Assembly (NCBI GenBank): GCA_014238615.1
Contig: JABAAT010000024.1
Coordinates: 23,802-87,801 of the forward strand
Direction: 5' to 3'
Length of the DNA stretch: 64,000 bases
Source: Gammaproteobacteria bacterium
Lineage (GTDB): Bacteria; Pseudomonadota; Gammaproteobacteria; Porifericomitales; Porifericomitaceae
Part shown: positions 3,287-48,203 of the stretch, piece after piece
Layout: every line of letters begins with the position of its first letter
Position numbering within the stretch: the stretch's first letter is position 1
Made by a program: the position numbers and the translations under genes
Notes under the pieces: generated by a model
Seen by the model: only the letters and a program-made list of their open reading frames with translations
Databases searched by the model: none
Told to the model about the DNA's origin: nothing

Positions 3287-5257
3287 ATGGGCCTGAGCTT
3301 TGATATATCCGGGGCGCAGATCCTCGGGGCCCGAGAGTACCAGGAAGATGAATTCCTGATTTCCAACCTGGTGGATGAGAACGATGATCCAGCCGCCTTG
3401 ATCGCGGTGGCCGACGGCATGGGCGGTCACGCCGCCGGGAATGTCGCCGCCAACATGGCGGTACAGTCCTTCAATAAACATATCCGCGCCAATTATCCGG
3501 GCGGTAATATCCACGAACTACTCCACGAGAGCGTGCTGCGCGCGAATGCCAGCATCGCCGAGACCATCAACGAAACGCCCGCCCTGCAGGGCATGGGCTG
3601 CACCATCGTGGCGGCGGTGATAGACAAGGGGGAAATGTGGTGGGTGAGTGTCGGGGACAGCCATCTTTACCTGTTGCGCAGCGGTAAAATCTATAAGAAA
3701 AACGCCGATCACAGCTACGGCGGGTTCCTGGATCGCTTGCGCGCCTCGGGGCACACGATGGAACCCCAGCCCGGCCTGTCACGCAACGTACTGATGAGCG
3801 CCCTCACCGGGGAGGACATCGTTGAGATCGACTGCCCGGAAGAGCCGCTGAGCCTGCTTAACGGGGATCGCCTGCTCTTCTGCAGCGATGGCCTTGATAC
3901 CCTGAGCGATGGCAAGATCATCCACTATTCGAGATGGGGTACAAGCTCCAAGGAGTGCGTGGAAGAACTGCTTAAAGGAGTCACCGGCGAAAACAAAACA
4001 CGCCAGGACAACACGACTACCCTGGTGGTGGATGTGCACAGCGGCGTGCAACAATCTCAGCAAAAGCACGAGGAATCGGCGACCTCGGAAGGGATGATGG
4101 CAAAAGACCGTGAAGCCACCCTGCAGCTTGACCCCGCCGCCCGCAAAGAATACTTCGAGCGGATGTACCGCAAGGCCGTCAGTACGGCGAGCGTGCGACG
4201 TCCGCTGCCGGAGCGTCCAACGCGCTCCTTATTCAGTGGATTGCTGCAGCTGCCAACGCACTCCTTGTTCTTCAGGGGATTGTTGCTGCTGCTGCTGCTG
4301 GTTCTCAGCGGCGTTGCGTTCTATCTCCTGAGCGAGCCTATCTTCCTGAACATTGAGTTCCTGCGGCGAACGGAACCGTTTTCCTCCACACTGGAGACTG
4401 CACCGGAGACCCCGGCGTCGCCGCTTGCAAAAAGTCCCCGGGAAGGGCCTGCGGAGGGGCAGTACGAAGACGCGTATGAACCCCTGACGGTGAAGCCGGC
4501 CGCGCCGCCGCAACAGGTTCAAATCATCAGTGATCCGCTGTCGGACGGCGACATGGGGCCGGAATTGGTGCTGATCGAGGGGGGCACTTTCCGCATGGGC
4601 GGTTTGCTAAGCATCCATCCGGAAGAAAGCCCCGCACACACGGTACGCATCAAGAACTTTGCGATCAGCATCCGGGAAATCACGGTAAAAGAATACCTGC
4701 TCTACCTTCGCGCCACCGGGGATCCGCCCCCCGGGATAGAACACACCCCGGTTCGGGAAAACCATCCGGTCCATAATCTCTCCCGGAACGACGCGATCAG
4801 CTACGCGCGCTGGCTCAGCGAGACCACCGGCAGAAAGTATCGTCTGCCAAGCGAGGCCGAATGGGAATACGCGGCCAGCGCCGGAACCAGGCGCTACTAT
4901 TGGTGGGGCCCGGAAATGGTCCCCGGGCGCGCGCATTGCAGCCTTGGCTGCGGTTCCGTTTCAGGGCCCCAGGGGGGACCCCTGCCGGTGGGTCGCTTCA
5001 TGCCCAATCCTTACGGCCTGTACGACACCGCCGGAAATGTCTCCGAATGGATACACGACTGCTGGCATCCTAATTACCAGGGAGCTCCGAACGACGGCAG
5101 CAGTTGGCAGTCGGAAAATTGTCGTGCGTGGATCACACGAGGCGGATCCTACGAAAGCCTTTCCGGACGCCTGGGTCATCGCAACCGGGAACGCAGAATA
5201 TCGTCCACGATCCCTTATCCGGACGTTGGCATCCGGGTTGTACGGGAATTGGATTAA
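3287..5257 (+). CDS. PP2C-family Ser/Thr phosphatase - TM helix - FGE-sulfatase (SUMF1-like) domain protein
   Basis: PP2C motifs VADGMGGH, MGCT, VGDSHLY, DHS, CSDGL, QDNTT; TM GLLLLLLLVLSGVAFYLL; FGE motifs FRMGG, RLPSEAEWEYAA, NPYGLYDTAGNVSEW, RGGSY, GIRVVRE. Confidence 0.9.
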   Translation: MGLSFDISGAQILGAREYQEDEFLISNLVDENDDPAALIAVADGMGGHAAGNVAANMAVQSFNKHIRANYPGGNIHELLHESVLRANASIAETINETPALQGMGCTIVAAVIDKGEMWWVSVGDSHLYLLRSGKIYKKNADHSYGGFLDRLRASGHTMEPQPGLSRNVLMSALTGEDIVEIDCPEEPLSLLNGDRLLFCSDGLDTLSDGKIIHYSRWGTSSKECVEELLKGVTGENKTRQDNTTTLVVDVHSGVQQSQQKHEESATSEGMMAKDREATLQLDPAARKEYFERMYRKAVSTASVRRPLPERPTRSLFSGLLQLPTHSLFFRGLLLLLLLVLSGVAFYLLSEPIFLNIEFLRRTEPFSSTLETAPETPASPLAKSPREGPAEGQYEDAYEPLTVKPAAPPQQVQIISDPLSDGDMGPELVLIEGGTFRMGGLLSIHPEESPAHTVRIKNFAISIREITVKEYLLYLRATGDPPPGIEHTPVRENHPVHNLSRNDAISYARWLSETTGRKYRLPSEAEWEYAASAGTRRYYWWGPEMVPGRAHCSLGCGSVSGPQGGPLPVGRFMPNPYGLYDTAGNVSEWIHDCWHPNYQGAPNDGSSWQSENCRAWITRGGSYESLSGRLGHRNRERRISSTIPYPDVGIRVVRELD

Positions 5258-10501: not shown

Positions 10502-13500
10502 ATGCTGCTCACGCTGTGCGCCGCACCTGAACCGGGCGGCGCACACACGTCTGGACACCTCACCGAAGCATTGTGCGACGCGGGGGAGCTCCGGCAACAG
10601 GAACTGTACCTGATTGAGACGGCAGGCGACTTGCCCGAGTCACGCCTGGAATTGCTGCAGCGCCTGCTGCACGGAGCGACACCTTGGAGAGGTCCCGGAG
10701 AATACGCTTCGGGAACACAACATCTTCTGGTCGCGCCGCGCGCCGGCTGTGTCTCACCCTGGTCCAGCAAGGCCACCGAATTGCTACGGCGCACCGGCTT
10801 GCTGGAAATCCTTCGTATCGAAAGAATTAAAGTCTGGCTCCTGCCCGCAGGTATGCGGCGCGAAGCAGCGTATCGGCTTCTGTATGATCCCTTAACTGAA
10901 CAGTTGCTGGAGCATACCGGGGCACTGGAAACTTTATTCCGGGGCGGACATCCTCCGCCCGTGCTCCGCTACCCCCTGGACGGGCGAGACGCTGACGCCA
11001 CGGCGCTGCGGCAGGCCTGCCGGGACTTGGGGATCAGCATTGACCCCCTGGAACTGCGTAGGCTGCACGACCGCTTCAGTGAAATGTCTCACACCCCGAG
11101 CGACGCCGAGTTGATGCTGTATGCCCAGATCAACTCCGAACACTGCCGCCACAAGATTTTCAACGGCCGCTGGCGCCTGGACGGCGCGGCCGTGCCGCAC
11201 TCGCCCTTCGCCTGGATCCGGGCCACCTGCCCATCCACGCGCCGGGACGTGTTGAGCGCCTACGAGGACAACGCCGCGGTGCGCAAGGGAGTGCGGGCGC
11301 AGCTCTGGTACCCGGACGCGGACCACGTTTATCGTGCGCACGAGGAGCGGGCTGAACTGCTGGCCAAGGTGGAAACCCACAACCATCCTACCGGCGTTTG
11401 TCCCTACCCCGGTGCGGCCACCGGCGCCGGCGGCGAGTTGCGCGACGAAGCCGCCACGGGACGCGGCGCCCGCCCCCTGGCCGGGATCACCGGCTTCTGC
11501 GTCTCTCACCTGCGCCTGCCGGATTGGCCGCAACCCTGGGAAGAAGAGCGCGGCCGTCCTCCCCAACTGGCCGAAGCCCTGCGCATTATGTTGGAGGCGC
11601 CGCTCGGCGCCTCCAATTACAACAACGAATTCGGCCGCCCCAACCTGTGCGGCTTCTTCCGCGCCTTTGAACAGGCGGCCACCGGAACAACGCCGGAGCG
11701 CGGTTACCACAAACCCATCATGCTGGCCGGCGGCTGCGGTCTCATCCGCACCATGCAGGTGCAAAAGCAGCCCCTGCGCCCCGGCGATCTGCTGCTGGTG
11801 CTGGGCGGTCCTGGCATGCTCATTGGCCTGGGCGGGGGCGGCGCTTCCTCCACGGCCAGCGGCTCCCGGAACACACGGCTGGATTTCGCCTCGGTACAGC
11901 GCGGCAACGCCGAGATGCAAAGGCGCTGCCAGGAAGTGATCGATCGCTGCTGGTCTCTGGGTCCGGAGAATCCCATCCTGGCCCTGCACGACGTGGGCGC
12001 GGGCGGCCTGGGCAACGCCTTGGCCGAATTGGTACGCGGCCTGGGCGCGGACCTGGATCTGGAAGCCATCCCCAGCGCCGATCCCGGCCTGGGCCCCCTG
12101 GAATTATGCTGCAACGAAGCCCAGGAACGCTACGTACTGGCCCTGCGCGAGGCCCAACTGGAATCATTCGGCGCCTGCTGCGCTCGTGAGTACGCACCCT
12201 GGGCCTTGCTCGGGAAAGTCACGCGCCGCACACGGTTCCGCATCACCCCAGGCAAGGCCCCAGGCAAAGCCGCGGCGCAGGCCCCTATCGACCTGCCCAT
12301 GCAGCTGCTGTTCCCGGACGATCCCGGGCTTTGCGTCAGCGGCCGCACGCGCCGCCGCGGCACACCGGAAACCCCGCCGGTGCTGCTGGAACGCCAGGCC
12401 CGCCTGGAAAAAATGGATCTTGGGGAAGCGGCACGCCGGGTGCTCAGCATGCCGACGGTCGCCGCCAAAACCTTCCTCATCACCATCGGCGACCGCTGGG
12501 TAGGGGGCCTCACGGCGCGCGATCCCATGGTGGGTCCCTGGCAACTGCCGGTCGCCGACTGCGCGGTCAGCGCCGTCAGCTTCCGGGACGCGGTCGGCTT
12601 CGCCATGGCCGTGGGGGAACGCGGCCCGGTGGCGCTCACCTCCCCGGCCGCCGCGGCGCGCCTGGCGGTCTCGGAAGCCCTGACCAATTTGTGCGCGGCG
12701 CGTATCCTGCATCTGCAACAGGTGCTGCTCTCCGGTAACTGGATGGCCGCCGCCGGCGCCGCGGAAGAAAACGCCGATCTATACCAGGCGGTGCAGGCCC
12801 TGAGTACTTACTGCCAGGCCCTGGAGGTACCGGTGCCGGTCGGCAAGGATTCGCTCTCCATGCGCTGCCTGTGGGAGAACGGAGGGAAACGCGGAGAAAT
12901 GTTGGCGCCCATCTCCCCCGTGGTATCCGCCTTCGCCCCGGTGGCCGATGTGGAATCCACCCTGACCCCCATGCTGCGTGGCACCCCCGGGGAGAGCCTG
13001 CTGCTGCACGTAGATCTAGGCATGGGCCACAGGCGCCTGGGCGGCTCTATCCTGGAACAGGTTTTCAAAGACTCCCTAGGCGCCCCGGCCGACGCCCCAC
13101 CGCCCGCAGTCCTGAAGCACTTCTTCCGCACCGTACAGTTGCTGAATGAAACGGGACTGCTGCTTTCCTACCACGACTGTTCGGACGGCGGCCTCTTCGT
13201 GACCCTCTTTGAAATGGCCTGCGCCGCCCGGCGTGGTCTCAACATCCACTTGGGCGATGCGCACGGCCCGCCGGCCGCGCAGCTGTTCACGGAAGAACCG
13301 GGCGCCGTCCTGGAGGTACGGCACTCCGACCTGGAACAGGTGCAAAAGCTGTTTGAAGACCCGCACGCCGCTCCCCTGCACCGCATCGCCGTCCCCACGG
13401 AAACCCCGGAGTTCCACGTACGCCGGGAGCACGCGCCGGCGGCACGCCTCGAGCTATATCCACTTCTGGAAGCCTGGAACGAAACCAGCCTGCGCCTGCG

Positions 13501-33617: not shown

Positions 33618-36374
33618 TCAGGCCGATGCCTCGTAGGCGCGCCGGTCTGAATCGGTCGCATCGTCGGCTGCCTGGCCTTGACGGCGGAGTGCCTTCAGGG
33701 CGGCGCGCTTCAGGCTGTTCAGGATACCGCTCTGGCCGGTATGGGTGCAGGGCACCCAGGGGACCCGTGCTTCCCGGAGACATTCGCGCAGGTGGCGCCC
33801 TAACTGGGTGCGCATCATCTCCATCAGGACCACCACGTCGGCCTGGCGGCACTCCTTCCCGAGTTGATCTTTGATCCGCCCCCAGTTGGAAGTCCAGCCG
33901 GTGTGGTGAAATTCCACCCGTACTCCCGGCCAGCACCGGCTTAACTCTTCCCTGATGGGTGCATCATAAGGCTCCTGCCGTTCATCACCGCCCACAAAGA
34001 TGATCCGCAGCGACGCACCTTTCCGGAGTAGCGCGTCCTCGTCATCATCCAGCACCGGCGCCGGCGGCGTCTCCGGAAGCGCCTCATGCAGACCCTGGAG
34101 CGCTTCCCGGTAACCCCAATCCCGCATCACCTCCAGGATCTCCTTAGCCTGCGCCAGGTCCTGGTCCCGCACCTTGAAGAACAATTCGCGCAGCAACGCT
34201 CCGCATTCCTGATCCCGGCCCAGGTCACGGAGCAGAAAAACCCTGGTCCAGGCGGCCTCCGACCACTTCCAGGCCGGGTCGTAACCCTCGGAGCGCTTCA
34301 ACAAATCAATGAAATCCTGCTTATGGGCATCCTGTTCCATGGCCAGGATCTGCATGATATCCAGCACCTGGACAGCTTTCTCCAGTTGCTCGCCGCGTTC
34401 CCGCTCGCGCAGCCCGCGCCGGCTGCCTTCCAGCAGCCTTGGCAACAAGTCATACGCCGCTTTCCAGCGCAGGCTGTAGCCATGCCGCTCGTCACGCAAA
34501 TATTCCAGGTAGTGCTTCTGCAGGACGTCAGAATGATTCAACATCTCCGGATCCGTGTCCAGAACCTCTAAGGCTTCGGCGCCGCAGTACGACCAGATCG
34601 ACTCGGCGATGCGCGCCGCCGTCACTGAATCTATCAACGCGGCGTCCTCCCAAAATTTCTTCACATGCTCGTGCGGAAAGCGGCCGGCGCCAGGGCTGAT
34701 CTGCTTCCAACATTCGTAGGCTTCAGCAAGTTGCGTCTTGTCGCCCAGCTTCGGCATGCCCAGAACGCTCTGGAGAAACAGCGATTGGCCAAGCAGGCCG
34801 CTTTTCTCGTAGTAAGCCGCACTCTCGGAGGCGCGCATGCCGCGGCTCGCTTTCTGAGCATGTTGCAGCGCCTTCCATGACAATTTTTCCCGTTGCCCGC
34901 CGGGAACCTCCCAGTAACCCAGGTAAGCCAGGAGGGAAAGTGCATGGTGGGCGGTGGTTACACCGCGCCCCCGTTGCTGCACGGCCTGCCGGAAGTACGG
35001 CTTCCCTTTACGTAACGACTCCAACAGGCAGGCGCGACGCTCGGCCTCCGGGGCCACCCGCAGCTCGTCCACGGACTTCAGGTTGCCGCAAGCCAGGCCC
35101 AGGTCGCTCAGCATGGCCGCGGAGACGCCGGCCTCACTCGCTCGCAGTTCCTGGAGGAATTCCCGGGCTTCCTGGAACCGACCTTCGCGCAATCTTGAGC
35201 GCGCCAGGCAATGGCGGATATCGCAGCTCAGGCGGGCCACCTCCTCGCCGGCGGCTGCGGCGCGCCGCAGCGTCTGCCCATCCAGTTGTTCCAAGGGCTT
35301 CAGCAGCAACCGGGCATCCTGATGACGTCCCGCACGCAGCCACCCGCGCGCCGCATCCACGGACTGCTGTGCCATCCACAGCAGGCCACCGGGCGGCGGG
35401 CGCTGCTCCAGCAGCTGCCCACCCAGCAACTGCAGGGCATATCCCAGCAGTTCCTTATTTTCCAGCAGCCGCGGGAAACAGAAAAAGGCGATGACGCGGC
35501 CGGCCTCATTCCCGGAAGCACGTTCAAAGACCCGGCCGAACTTCTCCAGCAAGGCTTTCAGGTTGCGGCGCAGGTCGGCCGCCGCGGCCAGCATCCCCGC
35601 CAGGCGCCATTCCCTGCACGCTTCATCGAAACCGGGAAGACTGACCTCCAGGTGCTCAACCTCGACGGAGGTGTCCGAGGCATCCATGAAACCCTGGTGA
35701 AAATGCACGGTATGGCGTTCCACATTGAGGCGGTACAGTTCGTCCAGCAATTCCCGTAATTGCTTGTGGGACAAGCTGCCGTGCTGCCTGGACAACATGC
35801 GCTTTACTTCTCTGTACAGCAACTGGTCCAGCAAGGTCAGCGGTTCCGGCAACCGCTTTTCATCGTGCTGCAGGAGCACCGGCGGACGCAGCAACGGCGC
35901 GGTCGATCGCGTGGGGTGCGCCTTCAACCAGAGCCGTACCGGTTCCGGCCGCGCGCCGGTCAATTCGCAACAAAGCCCCAGGATCACCCCGACCTGCTCC
36001 GGCGCACAGGAGGACTGCTTCGGCAAACTTTCCAGGGCCTGCCAGGCATTCCGGGAGACCCTGTCACCCCCGCCTTCCGGCCAGTGTTTCAGGGCCGGCA
36101 ACCCCCAATCCACCATCAGTTGCCAGGCCAGGCCCTCCAGGAGTTTCCTCAGGGCCGGTCCCCGCATACGCCGCAGCGCCTCACTGCGCCACAATGCGAC
36201 GAGTTCATCCCGGCTTTTCCTGCGCAATTGCACGGCCCGCGATTTCCGCCACTCGGCCAGCCACTTACAGACATCATCTCGATGCTGCTCCACGAACAGG
36301 CGCGTGGCCCGGTTCTGCAGGTCACGGTCCAGGTGTTCCCAAGTGCGCCGCAACCAGTCGGTGGCCGGACTCAC
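33618..36374 (-). CDS. Large uncharacterised alpha-helical/TPR-like protein with a C-terminal DUF2325-like domain
   Basis: About 918-aa open frame; GTGA overlap with the rluB stop; TPR-like segments (ARGWLRAGRHQDARLLL, LARSRLREGRFQEAREFL); C-terminal LRIIFVGG..HTGWTSNW..ADVVVL. Confidence 0.8.
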   Translation of the reverse strand: MSPATDWLRRTWEHLDRDLQNRATRLFVEQHRDDVCKWLAEWRKSRAVQLRRKSRDELVALWRSEALRRMRGPALRKLLEGLAWQLMVDWGLPALKHWPEGGGDRVSRNAWQALESLPKQSSCAPEQVGVILGLCCELTGARPEPVRLWLKAHPTRSTAPLLRPPVLLQHDEKRLPEPLTLLDQLLYREVKRMLSRQHGSLSHKQLRELLDELYRLNVERHTVHFHQGFMDASDTSVEVEHLEVSLPGFDEACREWRLAGMLAAAADLRRNLKALLEKFGRVFERASGNEAGRVIAFFCFPRLLENKELLGYALQLLGGQLLEQRPPPGGLLWMAQQSVDAARGWLRAGRHQDARLLLKPLEQLDGQTLRRAAAAGEEVARLSCDIRHCLARSRLREGRFQEAREFLQELRASEAGVSAAMLSDLGLACGNLKSVDELRVAPEAERRACLLESLRKGKPYFRQAVQQRGRGVTTAHHALSLLAYLGYWEVPGGQREKLSWKALQHAQKASRGMRASESAAYYEKSGLLGQSLFLQSVLGMPKLGDKTQLAEAYECWKQISPGAGRFPHEHVKKFWEDAALIDSVTAARIAESIWSYCGAEALEVLDTDPEMLNHSDVLQKHYLEYLRDERHGYSLRWKAAYDLLPRLLEGSRRGLRERERGEQLEKAVQVLDIMQILAMEQDAHKQDFIDLLKRSEGYDPAWKWSEAAWTRVFLLRDLGRDQECGALLRELFFKVRDQDLAQAKEILEVMRDWGYREALQGLHEALPETPPAPVLDDDEDALLRKGASLRIIFVGGDERQEPYDAPIREELSRCWPGVRVEFHHTGWTSNWGRIKDQLGKECRQADVVVLMEMMRTQLGRHLRECLREARVPWVPCTHTGQSGILNSLKRAALKALRRQGQAADDATDSDRRAYEASA

Positions 36375-37225
36375 GCCGCGCACCCGCTCCGAGGAGCCTG
36401 TACACCGTCCGGGCACAGCAACTCACGTACCTTCCCGGGCGGCAGCTCCCAGCACTCCCCAGGGCGCGACCGGGGGGGCAGACTGAACGTCCCGAAGCGA
36501 ATTCGTACCAAGCGGCTGACCCGCAACCCCTGGGTTTCCCAAAGCCGCCGCACCTCGCGCCTGCGTCCCTCCAGGAGCACCACGTCATACCACTGGTTGC
36601 GCGCCCGACCGCGGCCGCTCCGCACGCGTTGAAACCGCGCCGGACGCCCGTCCAGGTACACCCCCTCCAGCAGGCGCCGCAACTGCGCGGGAGAAGCCCG
36701 GCCGTCGACACGCACCGCGTATTCCCGTTCCACGCCGCCGGAAGGATGCGCCAGGCGCTGCACCAGGTCGCCGTCATTACAGAACAGGAGCAGGCCGGAA
36801 GTATTGAAATCCAGGCGCCCAACGCTCAGCCAGGAGCCTGGTAATGGGGGCAATTGTTCGTAAACGGTCGGGCGGCCCTGGGGATCGTCACGCGTGCAGA
36901 TGCGCCCGACCGGCTTATGGTAAAGCAATACGCGCGGCACGCCCCCGGCGGCCCACTTCAGACGCAGCGGCCGGCCGTCCAGGCGCAGGTAATCCTTCGG
37001 TCCGGCGCGATCCCCGGGACAGGCCGGGCGGCCATTCAACTGGATACGCCCGGCCCGCAACCAGGCTTCGATCCGGCGCCGGGACGCGTACCCAGAGCGC
37101 GCCAGGAGCTTCTGAATGTATTCACCGCGCGGGGCAGCGGCAGCCCCGCCGGAAAGCTTGTCCGGGGTTGGAGCGGAAGCCGCCGCGTCGCGCACCCGCT
37201 GCTGCCTTGTGCGTGTCTCAGGCAC
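36371..37225 (-). CDS. rluB: 23S rRNA pseudouridine synthase B
   Basis: IQKLLARSGYASRR, YHKPVG, VGRLDFNTSGLLL, EREYAVRV, REVRRL. Confidence 0.93.
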   Translation of the reverse strand: MPETRTRQQRVRDAAASAPTPDKLSGGAAAAPRGEYIQKLLARSGYASRRRIEAWLRAGRIQLNGRPACPGDRAGPKDYLRLDGRPLRLKWAAGGVPRVLLYHKPVGRICTRDDPQGRPTVYEQLPPLPGSWLSVGRLDFNTSGLLLFCNDGDLVQRLAHPSGGVEREYAVRVDGRASPAQLRRLLEGVYLDGRPARFQRVRSGRGRARNQWYDVVLLEGRRREVRRLWETQGLRVSRLVRIRFGTFSLPPRSRPGECWELPPGKVRELLCPDGVQAPRSGCAA

Positions 37226-42709: not shown

Positions 42710-43796
42710 TCGGCAATTGGTGGGCAGTCCCTGCTTACGCCGGCCGCGCCGTTGTTTCAAGGCCGCCCGAGTGCTGTTCCTGGCGCTGCTGCCGGCGCTC
42801 ATCACCTCCTGTGCGCCGGTCACCCGTCTCCCCACGATCGACCCCGCCCTGGTAGAGCAGGAGCGCAGACTACAGCAAAACCTGGCGATTCGAACGTGGC
42901 AGAAGGACATCAGCCGCCTGCACAGGGTAGCCGCTCCCCTGCTGCGCGTCGCCACACCCGAATGCCCCGGGGAACTCCACGGCCAGCCCGGCTTCCTGAC
43001 CGTCACGGACTCCACCTTCCCTGAAGCCATGCACCGCACGGCGCGGGAAATCTACCGGGGAATCTCTACCCGGCTGGTCATCCTCGACGTGTTGCCGGAG
43101 TCCCCGGCCGCCGCCGCCGGGCTGCGCGAGGGAGACCTGCTCACCGCCCTGAATGGAGCGGCCCTCGGCACGGGGCGGCGCGCCCAACAACGATTGAACA
43201 GCCTCTCCATGAACGAGAACGCGCACCTGGAATTGGAACGCGCCGGGACGGTGCTGCACGTCAGCTATCGACCGCGGACAGCCTGTTCCTACGAAATCCT
43301 CTACCTGAACTCGCAGGACGAGATCAACGCTTACGCCGACGGCCACGCCATCGCGCTGACCCGGGGCATGCTGCGCTTCGTCATGGACGACCGGGACCTG
43401 GCCCTGGTCATCACCCACGAGATCTCCCACAACTCCATGGGTCATATCACGAAAAAACAAGGCAACGTGCTGCTCGGCAGCCTTGCGGATTTGTTGATCT
43501 CCGCGGCCACCGGAGTCCACACCGGCATTTTCAGCAACCTTGCCAGCACGGCTTTCTCCCAGGAGTTTGAAGCAGAAGCCGACTACGTGGGACTCTACCT
43601 GATGGCGCGCGCCGGCTACGACCTGGAGGGAGTCGCGGATTTCTGGCGGCGTATGTCCGTGGAGCACTCGGGAAGCATTGACATCGGTTCCACTCATCCC
43701 ACCTCTCCGGAACGCTTCCTCTCGATCAACGCGACAACCCGGGAGTTACATCTGAAACAGGAGCAGGGCCTGCCCCTGAAGCCGGAACTCAAGTAA
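42702..43796 (+). CDS. PDZ-domain M48 family metalloprotease, probable lipoprotein
   Basis: Lipobox-like LITSC, PDZ (SPAAAAGLREGD), INAYA, HEISH, EFEAEADYVG, THP. Confidence 0.88.
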   Translation: MASRQLVGSPCLRRPRRCFKAARVLFLALLPALITSCAPVTRLPTIDPALVEQERRLQQNLAIRTWQKDISRLHRVAAPLLRVATPECPGELHGQPGFLTVTDSTFPEAMHRTAREIYRGISTRLVILDVLPESPAAAAGLREGDLLTALNGAALGTGRRAQQRLNSLSMNENAHLELERAGTVLHVSYRPRTACSYEILYLNSQDEINAYADGHAIALTRGMLRFVMDDRDLALVITHEISHNSMGHITKKQGNVLLGSLADLLISAATGVHTGIFSNLASTAFSQEFEAEADYVGLYLMARAGYDLEGVADFWRRMSVEHSGSIDIGSTHPTSPERFLSINATTRELHLKQEQGLPLKPELK

Positions 43797-43819
43797 CGGA
43801 AGCCGGAACTCAAGTAACG
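43778..43819 (+). repeat. Exact 21-bp tandem duplication spanning the M48 gene stop codon
   Basis: GAAGCCGGAACTCAAGTAACG at 43778-43798 and 43799-43819. Confidence 0.9.
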
Positions 43820-43931
43820 GAACACGGTGGGCCCCCCACGTCGCTAAAACCCGACAGCCCACCGATAACGCCGAGGTCGGCCCCAGACGACAGGGCGGGC
43901 GCCCGCGTCCGTGGCGGAGCTTACGACCGCC

Positions 43932-44235
43932 GGCCGTTACGTTCCATCATCTACTTAGTAGGGGAATGGGGGTGAAAGCGGCGGAAATGGTATATTATTC
44001 CCTGTTTTTAGGGAATTACCTACTATAATCCTCACAAATCCCCATGATTTTCACATAACCCTGTCCTATTTGCCCTGTCCCGCCTGGTGGGGGAAATGGG
44101 GGTGAAAGCGACGGGAGCAGCCGGAGCATCTGCCCGTGGGTGTCTAACTCGTTAGAGGGTTGAGGAAAGAGCGCAGAGGGTGTCTCCACGCTGCGCCGCA
44201 ACCAACCTGCGGCACCAACACTTAACGTAACGGCT
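43932..44235. mobile_element. MITE-like non-coding element A with terminal inverted repeats
   Basis: GGCCGTTACGTT (43932-43943) ... AACGTAACGGCT (44224-44235); AT-rich interior; no transposase. Confidence 0.4.
43965..44110 (+). repeat. 16-bp direct repeat AATGGGGGTGAAAGCG x2, 130 bp apart
   Basis: Copies at 43965-43980 and 44095-44110; the core GGGGGTGAAAG recurs at 48193-48203. Confidence 0.85.
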
Positions 44236-46483
44236 CCCCGGCTTGCAGGGAACGCAGCAGTTCCTCGGCTTCGCCGAGAAAGGGGGATTGGATCTCTCTC
44301 AGGATGCGCACGGCCCGGCCGACCTGTTGCTCGGCTTCATCCGTTCTGCCGGCTTCCTGCAGCAGCTCGGCGCCTCCCATCAGGGCCGCCGCCCCGTGAC
44401 CGCGGAGTACGGGGGTGGCCGCTTCGGCATAGTGCTCGGAGATTTCCTGGAATGCCTGGATGCCGGCTGCCCGGTCTCCATGCGCCACCAGGGTGGCCCA
44501 CTCCATGCGCAATTCGACCACGGTCTGCTGCAGGAGGGGGTGGCTCTCCTTACCATAGCGTTCCAGCGCGGCCTCCAGGAGCTTGATGCCCTTGCCGGAC
44601 TGCTGCAGCTGCAACAGCATCTGGCTGCGGTGCAGGTGAGCCAGGATCACCAGGTGCCTGACCTCCGGTGCGGGGTCGAGCAGGAATTCCTGGATCATCC
44701 CATCAAGGGAGTCAGCGGCCTCGCGCAGGCGGCCCGCAATGGCGGCGGCGATATTGCGGTACAGCCAGGCCGCGGCCAGGGCCGCCCGGGTGGCATCGCT
44801 AAAGGTGGTCGCCGACGCCTGCAGTTGCAGCAGGGGCTCCAGGACATCAATGGCCTTCTCCCAATCCTGCATGCGGTATAACAGCAACCCTTGATGGGTC
44901 TCGAGCTGGATGCGCGCCTGGGTCTGCGCCGGAAGCTTCCCGGTAAAGCGTTGCAGCGCCTGCTGAATGGCCTGCAGCGCCTCCACGGTCAGGCCGGCCC
45001 GCTCCAACAACCGGCTCTTGCCGATGAACAGGCGCGCACTCGCTTCCTGCAACTTCGCATCTTCGGATTCCGCGTGGCGCGCGGCGGCCTCTTCCAATAC
45101 CTCCAGGGCTTCCGGCAGACGCTGCGCGGCGGCCAGGAGCTCGGCCTGGTATTCCGCGACATCCAGAAGCCGCTCCTGGACCCGTGGGGACGGATCCGCG
45201 CTGAAACGCCGTTGGACGCGCTCAAAGGCCGCCAGCCGCCGTTCCTCCGCCGTGGCTTTTTCTTCTCCTTCTCCCTCCCATTCCTCGTGCTCCCCCCGCA
45301 GCAGCAGGGAGCGCAGGGCATAGGCACGTAAAGCTCCCTCCTCGTCATCCTGAAGGCTTTGCTCCAGGTCTCGCAGGGTCTCACGCGCCGCCCCCGGGCG
45401 CCGCGTTTCCACGAGGGTGGCGGCTCTCTGGATGCGGGCCTCCGCGACAAGTCGGCGCAGCATGACCGGGGTGGCGGCGGAGTAGCGCTCGACCAGCACG
45501 GCATAAAGCTCCAGGGCTTCCTCGTGGCGCTCCAGCCGTCGCAACAACCAGCCCTGCCTGAGCCGCGCCCGTGCCGCCCGGACACGCACCTCCTCCAGCC
45601 TGCTGTCCTCTCCCGCCTCGGCCAGGGTTTGCAGGGTCTGTGCAGCCTGGGCGAGTTCTCCGTTGGACTCCAGCACCTGGCTCTGCTGCAACAGCATCCG
45701 GGTGGCCAAGCTTTGCAACGCCGGGGAAGGGACGCCGGCCGCGTAGCGCTCCAGGAAATACTCCAGCACTTCCAACTGCTCGTCACGGCGGTCCAAACGC
45801 GCCAAGGTCAGCGCCTGCGCCTGCAGCGCGCGTCCGATCAGCAGTTGGCGGCGCTCTTCCAACTCCCACCCGGGAGACGGGGGACGAGCGGCGCGCTGGT
45901 AGGATTCCAGCGCTTCCCGCGGACGCATGAGCAGGGTCAGCATGTCTCCCTGGACCAACCAGGCTTCCGCGAGCAGATCCTCCAGGTCGGGTTCGGCGCC
46001 GTATTCCTCAAGCGTTTCCCGCAGCACGCGCTCGGCTTCTTCCGGACGGCCGAGCCGGGCGTGGGCGAAACCTTCCACCAATCCAGCCACTGCCAGGGCC
46101 GGGCGCGGGGCCGACTCCCGCATGCCGGCCGCGGGCCGGGCAAGCAGGGCCCGGCTCTCCTTCAATGCCTCCTCCGTACGCCCCAGGCGCAGCAACGCCA
46201 GGGCCCGGAAGGCCAGCGCTTTCAGGCGATCCGCCTCGTCCTCGGCCAGCTCCAGGGCGCGCTCCAGGGAGGTCAGGGCCGTTTCCGGTTGCCCCTGGCG
46301 CAGGGTTCCAACGCCGGCGCGCAACCAGGCATTGAAGTCGCCCGGTGCGCTCCCGGTGTCCTGTTCCGCCGACTCGGAGGCCGCCCCGGCCGGCTCAGCC
46401 TGGGCCAGCAAAAGCAGGGTTGAACAGGAGACGCCCGCCGGGCAGTCCACGCCCAGCAGGCTGACGAGCAACAGGTGAAACAT
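44222..46483 (-). CDS. Large TPR-repeat protein, probably exported
   Basis: Hydrophobic N-terminus, then many roughly 45-aa repeats (A.A....G..L..L.R.EEAL..Y..L.ERY). Confidence 0.85.
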   Translation of the reverse strand: MFHLLLVSLLGVDCPAGVSCSTLLLLAQAEPAGAASESAEQDTGSAPGDFNAWLRAGVGTLRQGQPETALTSLERALELAEDEADRLKALAFRALALLRLGRTEEALKESRALLARPAAGMRESAPRPALAVAGLVEGFAHARLGRPEEAERVLRETLEEYGAEPDLEDLLAEAWLVQGDMLTLLMRPREALESYQRAARPPSPGWELEERRQLLIGRALQAQALTLARLDRRDEQLEVLEYFLERYAAGVPSPALQSLATRMLLQQSQVLESNGELAQAAQTLQTLAEAGEDSRLEEVRVRAARARLRQGWLLRRLERHEEALELYAVLVERYSAATPVMLRRLVAEARIQRAATLVETRRPGAARETLRDLEQSLQDDEEGALRAYALRSLLLRGEHEEWEGEGEEKATAEERRLAAFERVQRRFSADPSPRVQERLLDVAEYQAELLAAAQRLPEALEVLEEAAARHAESEDAKLQEASARLFIGKSRLLERAGLTVEALQAIQQALQRFTGKLPAQTQARIQLETHQGLLLYRMQDWEKAIDVLEPLLQLQASATTFSDATRAALAAAWLYRNIAAAIAGRLREAADSLDGMIQEFLLDPAPEVRHLVILAHLHRSQMLLQLQQSGKGIKLLEAALERYGKESHPLLQQTVVELRMEWATLVAHGDRAAGIQAFQEISEHYAEAATPVLRGHGAAALMGGAELLQEAGRTDEAEQQVGRAVRILREIQSPFLGEAEELLRSLQAGEPLR

Positions 46484-46557
46484 GGGTATTCCAGCGTCCG
46501 GAAAAAAGCGGGGCGGTGTGAGCAGGCGCCGGGAAGCACGGCTAAGCTCGGGGGGAT

Positions 46558-46563
46558 ATTATA
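46558..46563 (-). promoter_or_regulatory. Possible -10 box for the TPR gene
   Basis: Perfect TATAAT on the minus strand, 75 bp upstream of the start; no good -35. Confidence 0.3.
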
Positions 46564-46676
46564 GCCGCGCGCCTCCTTGGCACGGACGCCGCACCCCCGC
46601 CTTCCTTATCATGGGCGCTGCATCGTGAAGCTCCGCCCCGCGCCGCCCACGACGCCTTCAGACAACCCATTACTGC

Positions 46677-47678
46677 ATGCCGGATCCAAATCATTCCCCC
46701 CCCGCATTCGCCTCCCCTCCACACTGGCACAGCGGGGCCACGGTGCGCGCCATCATGCTGGAAGTCGCTGCGGCCCTGCTGCCCGGTCTGCTGGTCGCCC
46801 TCTGGCTGCGCGGTCCGGCGCTGCTCACCCACCTGCTGCTGGCCTGCGCCACCGCCTGGGGCATTGAATGGTGCGCCCTGCGCCTGCGCGGGCAACGTCC
46901 TCAAGCACCGATAGGCGACGGCAGCGCGCTGATCACGGCCATGTTGCTCGCCATCTGCCTGCCCTCCTCCGCGCCCTGGTACCTGACGGTCAGCGGCACC
47001 GCCTTCGCGCTGGGCGTGGTCAAGCATTGCTACGGAGGCCTGGGACAAAACATCTTCAACCCGGCCATGGCGGGCTATGTTTTCGTGCTGCTGTGCTTCC
47101 CGGCGGAACTGCTGAACCACCCGCCGCCCGGCGCCGCGCCTGGTTTATGGGCGGCCCTGGGCACCCCGTTCGGCCTGGTCAGCAACGCCGCTCCGGCGGC
47201 TTTCGTGCAGGCCGGACTGCACTCCCAGGGGACGCTCGCGGAATTGCGGGCGCCTGGGCTGGAATGGCCGGAACAGGGACAGGTGTGGCTGGCGGCGGCC
47301 TGGTTCATCGGCGGAGCCTGGTTGCTGGCGCGCCGCATCATCCGTTGGCGCATTCCCCTGGCCATGCTGGGCGCACTCGGCCTGGCCGCCCTGCTCACCG
47401 GCATGCTGGACGACCAACGCTTTGCCTCGGCCTGGTTTCACTGGCTGCACGGCGGCGCCATACTGGCTGCCTTTTTCATTGCCACGGACCCGGTGAGCAG
47501 CGCCTCGACGCCGCGCGGACAACTATTCTACGGCGCCGGCATCGGGCTGCTGACCTGGTACATGCGCAACTGGGGCGACTCCGCCGGCGCAATCGCCTTT
47601 GCAGTGCTGATCATGAATGCCTTTGCACCGCTGCTGGACTCCCTGCCGCACCGCCCGGCACCGGGTGCAGAAGTTTGA
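46677..47678 (+). CDS. rnfD: Rnf/Rsx electron transport complex subunit D (orphan; FMN-acceptor Thr absent)
   Basis: SPPHWH..IM..V..ALLPG, DGSALITAMLLA..LP, KHCYGGLGQNIFNPAM, AFFIATDPVS, AFAVLIMNAFAPLLD. Confidence 0.93.
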   Translation: MPDPNHSPPAFASPPHWHSGATVRAIMLEVAAALLPGLLVALWLRGPALLTHLLLACATAWGIEWCALRLRGQRPQAPIGDGSALITAMLLAICLPSSAPWYLTVSGTAFALGVVKHCYGGLGQNIFNPAMAGYVFVLLCFPAELLNHPPPGAAPGLWAALGTPFGLVSNAAPAAFVQAGLHSQGTLAELRAPGLEWPEQGQVWLAAAWFIGGAWLLARRIIRWRIPLAMLGALGLAALLTGMLDDQRFASAWFHWLHGGAILAAFFIATDPVSSASTPRGQLFYGAGIGLLTWYMRNWGDSAGAIAFAVLIMNAFAPLLDSLPHRPAPGAEV

Positions 47679-47826
47679 AACCCGCCGAGCCGCCGCGCCA
47701 CATCCCCCCTGTTGCTCATGCCGGACGCCCTGGGCGGCGCCACCATCAGCACCCAGGCGATCACCCGCGCCACGCGCACCGCCCTTGAGTTCTACGACCG
47801 GGAACGGGAAGTCCTGCTTTCACCCT
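47675..47826 (+). pseudogene. rnfG: rnfG remnant (internal deletion plus frameshift)
   Basis: TTG overlapping the rnfD stop gives about 12 codons; in the +1 frame, DALGGATISTQAITRATRTALEFYDREREVLL matches the RnfG C-terminus (D..[T/S]GATI..A...A...AL). Confidence 0.75.
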
Positions 47827-47954
47827 TAAGCAATCGCCCAAGTCATCGGCAAGACAACCGGAAAGTTGCTGGACAATCATCACGCTGCTGCTTCGCAAGC
47901 CCCCGGAGCAGAGCTACAAGAATCCCCCGGGAAGCGGGGGGTACGGGAGATACT

Positions 47955-48098
47955 GGCCGTTACGTAAAGTGTGGATGCTTTTTACCACAGGTTGGGCGTC
48001 TTCCTGGGGCAGCGCAGTAGGAAAGGCCGGTTTTGCACAGGCTTCCGGTAGGGCCCTGGCAACTGGACGACTTCGTTGGTTTTCCCAACGTAACGGCT
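47955..48098. mobile_element. MITE-like non-coding element B with terminal inverted repeats
   Basis: GGCCGTTACGT (47955-47965) ... AACGTAACGGCT (48087-48098); left end homologous to the inverted right end of element A. Confidence 0.4.
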
Positions 48099-48203
48099 GG
48101 CGGGAGATGATGCGGGAACCGGACGCCCGGGCCGAAGCGGCCATGGCGGCAACTTTTGTTAACCGGGTTCGGGCTCGCTTTCCGGGGCGGTCGGGGGTGA
48201 AAG

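Follow-up and report, generated by a model that had tools for sequence, protein, structure and literature searches.

Two inverted MITE-like elements bordering a TPR–rnfD gene block in an uncultured gammaproteobacterium

INTRODUCTION

[quoted passage not shown] Here we analyze a candidate family of this kind in a 64,000-nt stretch of contig JABAAT010000024.1 (assembly GCA_014238615.1; this whole stretch is hereafter called the window) from an uncultured gammaproteobacterium, in which four copies of the 10-nt repeat GCCGTTACGT delimit two elements, E1 and E2, on either side of a block formed by a TPR protein gene, an rnfD-like gene, and a remnant of rnfG. MITEs are defined by their size range (50 to 500 bp) and intergenic location and by the possession of terminal inverted repeats and target duplications (PMC10969869), and in one well-studied family only 40% of the copies retain the target duplication (PMC6382973). 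E1 and E2 resemble bacterial MITEs such as MITEAba12 of Acinetobacter in that they are 148 to 308 bp long, have no coding capacity, carry terminal inverted repeats, and are intergenic and multi-copy (PMC10969869, PMC6382973); the donation of codons or a stop to a neighboring gene is a further point of likeness, as would be the putative ~9-bp duplication flanking one copy here. They are unlike these MITEs in that their common repeat is only 10 to 13 nt and their ends are asymmetric, one (alpha) extending over ~40 nt and the other (beta) over ~17 nt. Members of classic MITE families vary little in length or sequence, in contrast to E1 and E2 with their unrelated interiors, and the present family occurs in no other sequenced species scanned. 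A MITE described from Porphyromonas gingivalis contains a minisatellite (PMC4596501), comparable to the short direct repeats that lie within inverted tips here, namely, the 130-nt unit of E1 and the GGTGGAAATAG runs of a paralogue; it has no sequence relationship to E1 or E2.

MITE-flanked composites, such as the 439-bp pair around class 1 integrons and the two MITE-297 copies enclosing a 76-kb mer region, resemble this locus in that two related non-autonomous elements bracket genes. In those composites the copies are identical or near-identical and plasmid-borne, the cargo is accessory, terminal duplications are present, and relatives lack the structure (PMC6382973). Here, in contrast, only the ends are common, an outer duplication is missing, and the cargo is chromosomal, of housekeeping type, and kept free of repeats in a relative.

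REPINs are compact hairpins made of two ~20- to 40-nt palindromic REP sequences and occur in tens to hundreds of copies. Together with REP and BIME sequences, these RAYT-mobilized repeats share with E1 and E2 that they are short and extragenic, often form inverted pairs, and are enriched between convergent genes (PMC3184786). Unlike in REPINs, pairing here is limited to the tips, the spacers measure 122 to 282 nt, copies are few, and no RAYT gene is seen.

RESULTS

Four repeat tips form two related elements in inverted orientation

Four exact copies of GCCGTTACGT lie at 43933-43942 (+), 44225-44234 (-), 47956-47965 (+), and 48088-48097 (-), exactly the positions and strands listed in a first-pass annotation of this DNA, and there is no fifth copy in the window. 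Dinucleotide shuffles yielded a mean of 0.03 matches and none of 100 shuffles reached 4; the four-copy repeat is real and non-random. Allowing one mismatch adds only two sites (21866 and 35010), both coding and within chance. Two intergenic gaps, both separating convergent genes, each contain two of the copies in inverted orientation.

The inner copies belong to the alpha end, alike over ~40 nt, and the alignment given for them earlier (20/24 identical, a 7-nt indel, then 9/10) was reproduced from the sequence. That the outer copies are also related is a new point: in this beta end, 16/17 positions agree between CCGCCGGCCGTTACGTT at 43927-43943 and CCGCCAGCCGTTACGTT, the reverse complement of 48087-48103, and the likeness takes in 6 nt outside the 10-nt core. 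The whole 4.2-kb region is a nested inverted structure, beta-E1-alpha' (TPR, rnfD, rnfG remnant) alpha-E2-beta'. The earlier view of two related elements in inverted orientation is upheld, each having one alpha and one beta end. The family is multi-copy in the genome.

The core is perfect (10/10) at all four ends, and pairing reaches 12 to 13 bp within each element (13 bp in E2). It is invariant among the four copies, whereas adjoining positions have diverged; between the inner arms, perfect identity extends over 10 nt at most. E1 and E2 have unrelated interiors, with a best local alignment score of 17 versus a shuffled null of 14.8±2.0. Homologous ends around unrelated interiors are what would be expected of deletion derivatives keeping only their ends. 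Only one open reading frame (ORF) of at least 60 aa lies wholly inside E1 or E2; it is located in E1 (44016-44201, minus strand), starts with TTG, and is 61 aa long. The 3' end of the TPR gene and those ORFs that overlap E2 simply extend into the elements. With lengths of 308 and 148 bp, E1 and E2 fall in the MITE range (about 50 to 500 bp, no transposase gene), although the 61-aa frame of E1 was not searched, and they have terminal inverted repeats and multiple dispersed copies in the genome.

Within E1, the internal direct repeat encloses the AT-rich core, and the alpha end follows ~90 nt further on (Table 1). E2 consists of ~40 nt of alpha end, an interior of 91 nt, and 17 nt of beta end. 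As an exact match, the sequence GGGGGTGAAAG is found three times, always within these two gaps: two copies are the cores of the internal direct repeat of E1, and the third, at 48193-48203 (+), lies outside E2 against the tilS stop, where it may be a fragment of another long-form element.

Table 1. Coordinates of the elements, their ends, and the enclosed genes (window positions)
Feature	Position	Strand	Remarks
E1, long form, 308 bp	43927..44234	.	Gap between PDZ-M48 protease gene (+) and TPR gene (-); beta left, alpha right
Copy c1, beta end of E1, CCGCCGGCCGTTACGTT	43927..43943	+	16/17 vs reverse complement of 48087-48103
Internal 24-nt direct repeat of E1, GGGGAATGGGGGTGAAAGCGGCGG	43961-43984 and 44091-44114	+	92% identity; 130-nt spacing
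AT-rich core of E1	Q block 43983-44003; hairpin 43997-44016; P block 44013-44072		Hairpin ATTCCCT-GTTTTT-AGGGAAT (7 bp); P block with TATAAT
Copy c2, alpha end of E1, GCCGTTACGTTAAGTGTTGGTGCCGCAGGTTGG	44202..44234	-	Inner-end homology; codes last 4 TPR codons
TPR protein gene, 753 aa	44222..46483	-	Pfam TPR families; 55% identical over full length to the 745-aa protein of a relative
rnfD-like gene, 333 aa, apparently intact	46677..47678	+	PF03116, 283 bits; TIGR01946 rnfD, 279 bits vs cutoff 207
rnfG remnant, C-terminal ~40 residues incl. GGAT flavin-site motif region	47723..47842	+	tblastn
Putative target-site duplication of E2, left copy, GAGATACTG	47947..47955	+	Abuts element
E2, short form, 148 bp	47956..48103	.	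Gap between rnfG remnant (+) and tilS (-); alpha left, beta right
Copy c3, alpha end of E2, GCCGTTACGTAAAGTGTGGATGCTTTTTACCACAGGTTGG	47956..47995	+	Homology to E1 alpha; recurs on other contigs
Copy c4, beta end of E2, CCGCCAGCCGTTACGTT	48087..48103	-	16/17 vs c1
Putative target-site duplication of E2, right copy, GAGATGATG	48104..48112	+	Abuts element

The element borders carry possible marks of insertion

The borders of E2 show a flanking direct repeat, GAGATACTG versus GAGATGATG, with a 7/9 match (simulated p=0.0027). An alternative flanking repeat, CGGGAGAT, matches 8/8 at 47944-47951 and 48101-48108 (p=0.0015). E1 has no flanking direct repeat, which is not unusual given a retention of 40% among copies of a well-studied family (PMC6382973).

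The mark of E1 is in the TPR gene. The TPR protein ends in ...SLQAGEPLR before its stop in the window, versus ...SLRAE in the nearest relative (745 aa), and the alpha tip starts within the codon aligned to the last residue of the relative's protein; the element gives PLR and the TAA, and the E codon overlaps the tip. The stop (44222-44224, minus strand) directly abuts the core, in agreement with the earlier statement that it lies inside the left copy. Because the tip begins where the orthologous protein ends, E1 appears to have been inserted onto the TPR stop codon, and the four-codon tail is of the kind that a 3'-end insertion would leave in a gene.

On the opposite side of E1, a perfect 21-nt tandem duplication (GAAGCCGGAACTCAAGTAACG x2, 43778-43819) spans the PDZ-M48 stop and creates an in-frame 7-codon copy including the TAA; each unit holds AAGTAACGGA, an 8/10 match to the repeat core that is probably due to chance. 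The alpha arms were also considered as the inverted ends, 34 to 41 nt long, of a transposon bearing the block, with tips at 44202 and 47995. This placement was rejected: no flanking duplication accompanies it (GCGCCGCAA vs GCGTCTTCC), and other copies put the conserved P/Q interior on the far side of the core.

Further copies occur in the same genome and in no other genome scanned

At least 3 further alpha ends are found in the same genome among assembled contigs of public runs, and ~5-6 are known in all. On at least two other contigs at genome depth, and on one in run X8, the stretch 47955/6-47989 is repeated with 3 to 4 mismatches. For the two extra alpha contigs, depth was 46 and 52 against a genome depth of 52 in X1, 409 and 536 against 543 in X2, and 13 and 12 against 11.5 in X3. 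One extra alpha end lies inside a 6.8-kb contig with unrelated flanks; the one in X8 has other flanks, with ...CCGCC immediately before GGCCGTTACGT. Another alpha end, with one mismatch, is located at the end of a 31,315-nt Logan contig (run X1), corresponding to window coordinate ~78,002-78,025, its tip toward the window. Assemblies break at this ~78-kb copy, ~30 kb downstream, and one ENA scaffold stops within ~200 nt. On the way to it, L025 (to 71.2 kb) and L027 (to ~76.6 kb) contain no copy. The locus is the best place to seek a parent element.

Short contigs join the Q block of E1 to an alpha end via ATAAAA or AAAAAA, together with the P block, GGTGGAAATAG runs, and a different flank; the P and Q blocks are thus found elsewhere at ~90% identity, in another order, beside an alpha end. 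Since P and Q are linked to an alpha end in two copies, the core is at the tip and P/Q lie inside the element. In their 24-nt end these contigs share their single mismatch with the ~78-kb copy, and their depth is 27 to 64% of the genome's. They are probably haplotypes of that copy, in which case it would be polymorphic in the population.

For scans of other genomes, the 19-mer GCCGTTACGTWAAGTGTKG served as the alpha-end query. Across 185,579 GTDB species genomes and the JGI metagenomes, it gave 7 and 6 singleton matches, respectively, in unrelated taxa, with ~9 expected by chance; none of these has extended similarity or an inverted partner, indicating chance matches. IMG/VR, searched with the 19-mer, and PLSDB and phage records, searched with E1, yielded no match.

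The TPR–rnfD block is kept without repeats in relatives

Besides a near-identical strain, a search with RnfD recovered a single relative at 66% and a clade at 55%. The 66% relative (L002:7512-11127) has a 745-aa TPR gene, rnfD, and a short ORF, i.e., the same divergent unit, which there lies between cytochrome-c biogenesis genes and ychF-pth-rplY-prs; it contains no GCCGTTACGT and no bracketing inverted repeat. The gaps around this unit are also long (L002:5624-6813 and 11128-11406) and hold short tandem duplications such as CGCCGCAGCTTCCAATAT x2 and AGGACCGAGGAAAAC x2; no homology to E1 or E2 was found in them. Members of the 55% clade (L003-L008; e.g., L003:8541-11604) have the order purF-rnfD-rnfG with a full 216-aa rnfG and no rnfABCE alongside.

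It had been supposed that the repeats explain why rnfD sits here without rnfABC. Orphan rnfD–rnfG beside purF in distant relatives contradicts this: the isolation of rnfD predates the repeats and is not explained by them. The best explanation is that the TPR–rnfD–(rnfG) module is older, vertically inherited, and flanked by chance; at most, the repeats, or breaks they caused, helped to rearrange the neighborhood. A gene for RnfD without adjoining rnfA/B/C/E is seen in three lineages, namely, the 55% clade, the window, and the 66% relative, the latter two with TPR/rnfD and a decayed rnfG. This recurrence suggests an RnfD(G) module that may have a role outside the classical Rnf complex.

The remnant of rnfG itself was identified by tblastn with the 216-aa RnfG of a relative (residues 164-203, E=5.6e-5). 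Its decay is an internal deletion ~110 nt from E2; since the remnant ends ~110 nt before E2, this element did not truncate rnfG. Contigs of an RNA-type run cover 47679-47840, so the remnant is transcribed.

The borders of the block, in turn, bear on whether the inverted elements moved it. A fossil MITE-flanked composite transposon, or a repeat-mediated translocation, would have carried the 3.7-kb TPR–rnfD–rnfG' block into the M48/tilS gap, and pairs of MITEs around cargo are documented (PMC6382973). Two related elements in inverted orientation do bracket the block, like ends outermost, and E1 and E2 stand exactly on two synteny breakpoints, the block behaving as a unit. The relative at 55 to 66% protein identity keeps the left synteny (scpB-scpA-tyrS / ispA-YCII-bolA-M20-M48) and then breaks; its own block sits elsewhere. 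After M48 it has a tatB-like gene, hisB, and hisH rather than tilS, so that the site is not comparable for absence of the cargo, and neither the neighbors of its block nor these genes after its M48 occur within 76 kb here. At such protein identity, however, many breakpoints are expected, and necessarily in gaps. Against a composite also stand the lack of a direct repeat outside the 4.2-kb unit (9 nt, AGCTTACGA vs GAGATGATG), while E2 has one of its own; the relative's block without the 10-mer or bracketing inverted repeat; the unrelated interiors of E1 and E2; and the lack of a transposase in the elements or in ~76 kb, although an enzyme acting in trans from elsewhere is conceivable. Moreover, perfect identity of at most 10 nt in the inner arms is too short for efficient RecA-driven homologous recombination. 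Hence, of the fossil composite transposon proposed earlier, the related and inverted elements at the block borders stand, but the missing outer duplication and the repeat-free block in a relative make us regard it as unlikely. The synteny comparison is mixed in the same way: the borders differ in the nearest relative, as a composite would have it, but the block is kept there without repeats.

No alternative junctions are seen in the contigs of sampled populations

L001, L023, and L024 and contigs of the runs X1-X4 and X6-X8 belong to the same species (≥99% identity) and have both elements wherever the sites are covered. L001, which is 99.96% identical to the window, and L023 carry the same four copies. 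The main contigs pass straight through both elements, and the contigs of seven DNA-type runs, one at ~550x, contain no inversion/strand-switch or excision junction; rare variants would escape contigs.

These data bear on a different role for the 10-mers, as sites of crossover by an invertase or Xer-type recombinase acting in trans, in the manner of invertons or pdif modules, which would render E1, E2, or the entire block invertible. Perfect short inverted repeats do bound segments of 292 and 132 bp, and E1 has an AT-rich core with TATAAT. The fimS switch, at 314 bp, is close to E1 in size, and global invertases use one core at several loci, as seen for this core. But no contig shows the alternative orientation or excision, which speaks against the invertible or recombinogenic module of the first-pass annotation; the elements lie downstream of both neighbors, where a flipped promoter would yield only antisense RNA; no recombinase is found within ~76 kb and no sigma-70 promoter in our scan; and a dif-like 11-6-11 structure is absent. 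For the latter, each 28-mer was scored against the two 11-nt arms of the gammaproteobacterial dif consensus with a 6-nt spacer. The repeats score 10 to 12 of 22 at best, a score of 12 is reached at ~110 other window positions, and 28 score higher. The resemblance to XerD half-sites noted before thus concerns one arm only, with no XerC-arm partner. We consider crossover sites very improbable.

Other known structures were also rejected as matches to the tips. The arrangement 5'-GTTACGT ... ACGTAAC-3', present on both strands, has the opposite order to the integron attC pattern 5'-RYYYAAC ... GTTRRRY-3', with one mismatch to each, and no integrase is in the gene lists; Tn3-type inverted repeats have only ACGTTAAG in common; and IS200/IS605 elements have a TTAC target but no inverted ends.

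Between the two elements there is a hot spot of population polymorphism, 45866-46743, extending from the TPR gene (5' part) over the promoter gap between TPR and rnfD to the rnfD start; contigs break there repeatedly. Thirteen single nucleotide polymorphisms (SNPs) at ~43% frequency fall within 45896-45992 in run X4, and 46653-46713 has 4 SNPs and a 3-nt indel between strains; the 21 kb compared otherwise has 2 differences (40377 and 47406). The changes are not adenine-specific, for which reason a diversity-generating retroelement acting on the TPR gene was discarded.

RNA features give little support to a host-serving role

REP/BIME/ERIC-type elements, whether once mobile or not, would serve the host in cis by acting on RNA 3' ends, read-through, or protein binding. 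Both E1 and E2 lie between convergent 3' ends, and their core has stayed perfect in four copies while its neighbors diverged. The RNA fold of E1 is moderately more stable than those of shuffles (z=-3.1), and that of E2 is not significantly so (z=-1.3). Contigs of an RNA-type run of a coded host organism cover 43501-44036, from the M48 3' end through the E1 beta end, and end ~20 nt beyond the 43997-44016 hairpin, as might be expected of an element acting on RNA 3' ends. However, simple promoter (sigma-70) and terminator scans gave no site inside E1 or E2, and Rfam gave no match for the elements at gathering thresholds or E≤5, two sub-threshold chance matches lying outside them. The ~5-6 known copies are far below the size of typical REP families, and the paired tips enclose ~120 to 280 nt and form no compact hairpin. 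Weighing these, a REP-like function is unlikely; it and a recombinase switch are both less likely than the composite reading.

Genomic setting

In a gammaproteobacterium of ~68% GC, the window represents an ordinary part of the core chromosome, with ispA, tyrS, dnaE, an lpx cluster, and bamA. Its nearest named homologues, at ~59 to 60%, are from Thiohalomonas, Sedimenticola, and Thiobacillaceae, and the species is known only from metagenomes labeled as marine or with two coded host organisms. The gene order at the locus is M20 peptidase and PDZ-M48 (+), gap 1 (425 bp), TPR (-), rnfD (+), and rnfG remnant (+), gap 2 (374 bp), and tilS (-), accA, and dnaE. The TPR gene is divergent from rnfD and is its conserved partner. 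No transposase or recombinase domain was detected in the ORFs tested from 1 to 32 kb or in precomputed gene lists from 33.8 to 76.5 kb, so that the absence of such genes reported for the window holds over ~76 kb.

Two other genes in the window deserve mention. An ORF at 33618-36416 (-), 918 aa in public assemblies, has no recorded Pfam match; its counterpart in the relative is 915 aa and is also located beside rluB/scpB. The product of the gene at 3287-5257 (+) is a fusion protein, with a PP2C phosphatase domain at the N terminus and an FGE-sulfatase (formylglycine-generating-enzyme-like) domain at the C terminus.

DISCUSSION

The architecture of the repeats, their multi-copy status, their lack of counterparts in the other genomes scanned, the direct repeat around E2, the replaced stop codon, and the repeat-free block in a relative come together in the reading that we favor with moderate confidence: E1 and E2 would represent two separate, fixed insertions, or relics, from a non-autonomous family of small MITE-like elements private to this lineage. 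In such a family, each element would end in an inverted tip, (CCGCCR)GCCGTTACGT, to which alpha adds a subterminal stretch of ~40 nt and beta a tip of ~17 nt. A transposase encoded elsewhere would bind the tips, move the elements in trans, and make a target duplication of ~9 bp, of which the 7/9 repeat at E2 may be the trace; E1 has none. Insertions would persist where harm is small, as in the 3' gaps of convergent genes, and E1 would have landed on the TPR stop codon, the gene now closing 4 codons inside the element at its TAA. Transposition, the trans-acting transposase, and the independence of both insertions are what we infer here from the elements and their copies.

Several findings weigh against this reading. 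No transposase with matching ends is present in the ~76 kb read; the flanking repeat accompanies one of the two elements only and is imperfect; and the terminal repeat common to the four ends is short, 10 to 13 nt. The other alpha ends are seen as short contig matches in which a second inverted tip is not in view. All sampled populations carry both elements, with no empty site among them. Finally, two of the ~5-6 alpha ends lie 3.7 kb apart, inverted, exactly at two synteny breakpoints, a coincidence somewhat greater than random scatter would give (rough p≈0.05).

A bolder version of the MITE-like family would make the 10-bp tip the site of a still-active trans transposase or recombinase, with elements that shuffled core modules such as TPR–rnfD as a MITE-flanked cassette and the polymorphic ~78-kb copy reflecting recent activity. 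We regard this version as improbable.

If the favored reading of E1 and E2 as MITE-like insertions is right, they represent one more private MITE-like family, in an uncultured, probably host-associated marine gammaproteobacterium, and a modest addition to a known kind of element. It would explain the oversized gaps, the 4-codon tail of the TPR protein, and the nearby assembly breaks, and the coincidence of repeats and breakpoints would offer a small, clear-cut case of chromosome rearrangements marked by short repeats. It also removes the claim that the orphan rnfD is transposon cargo, as an old TPR–rnfD (±rnfG) module recurs in relatives. This conserved module is arguably the more interesting part of the locus, with an RnfD-type flavoprotein lacking adjoining RnfABCE and an rnfG in decay.

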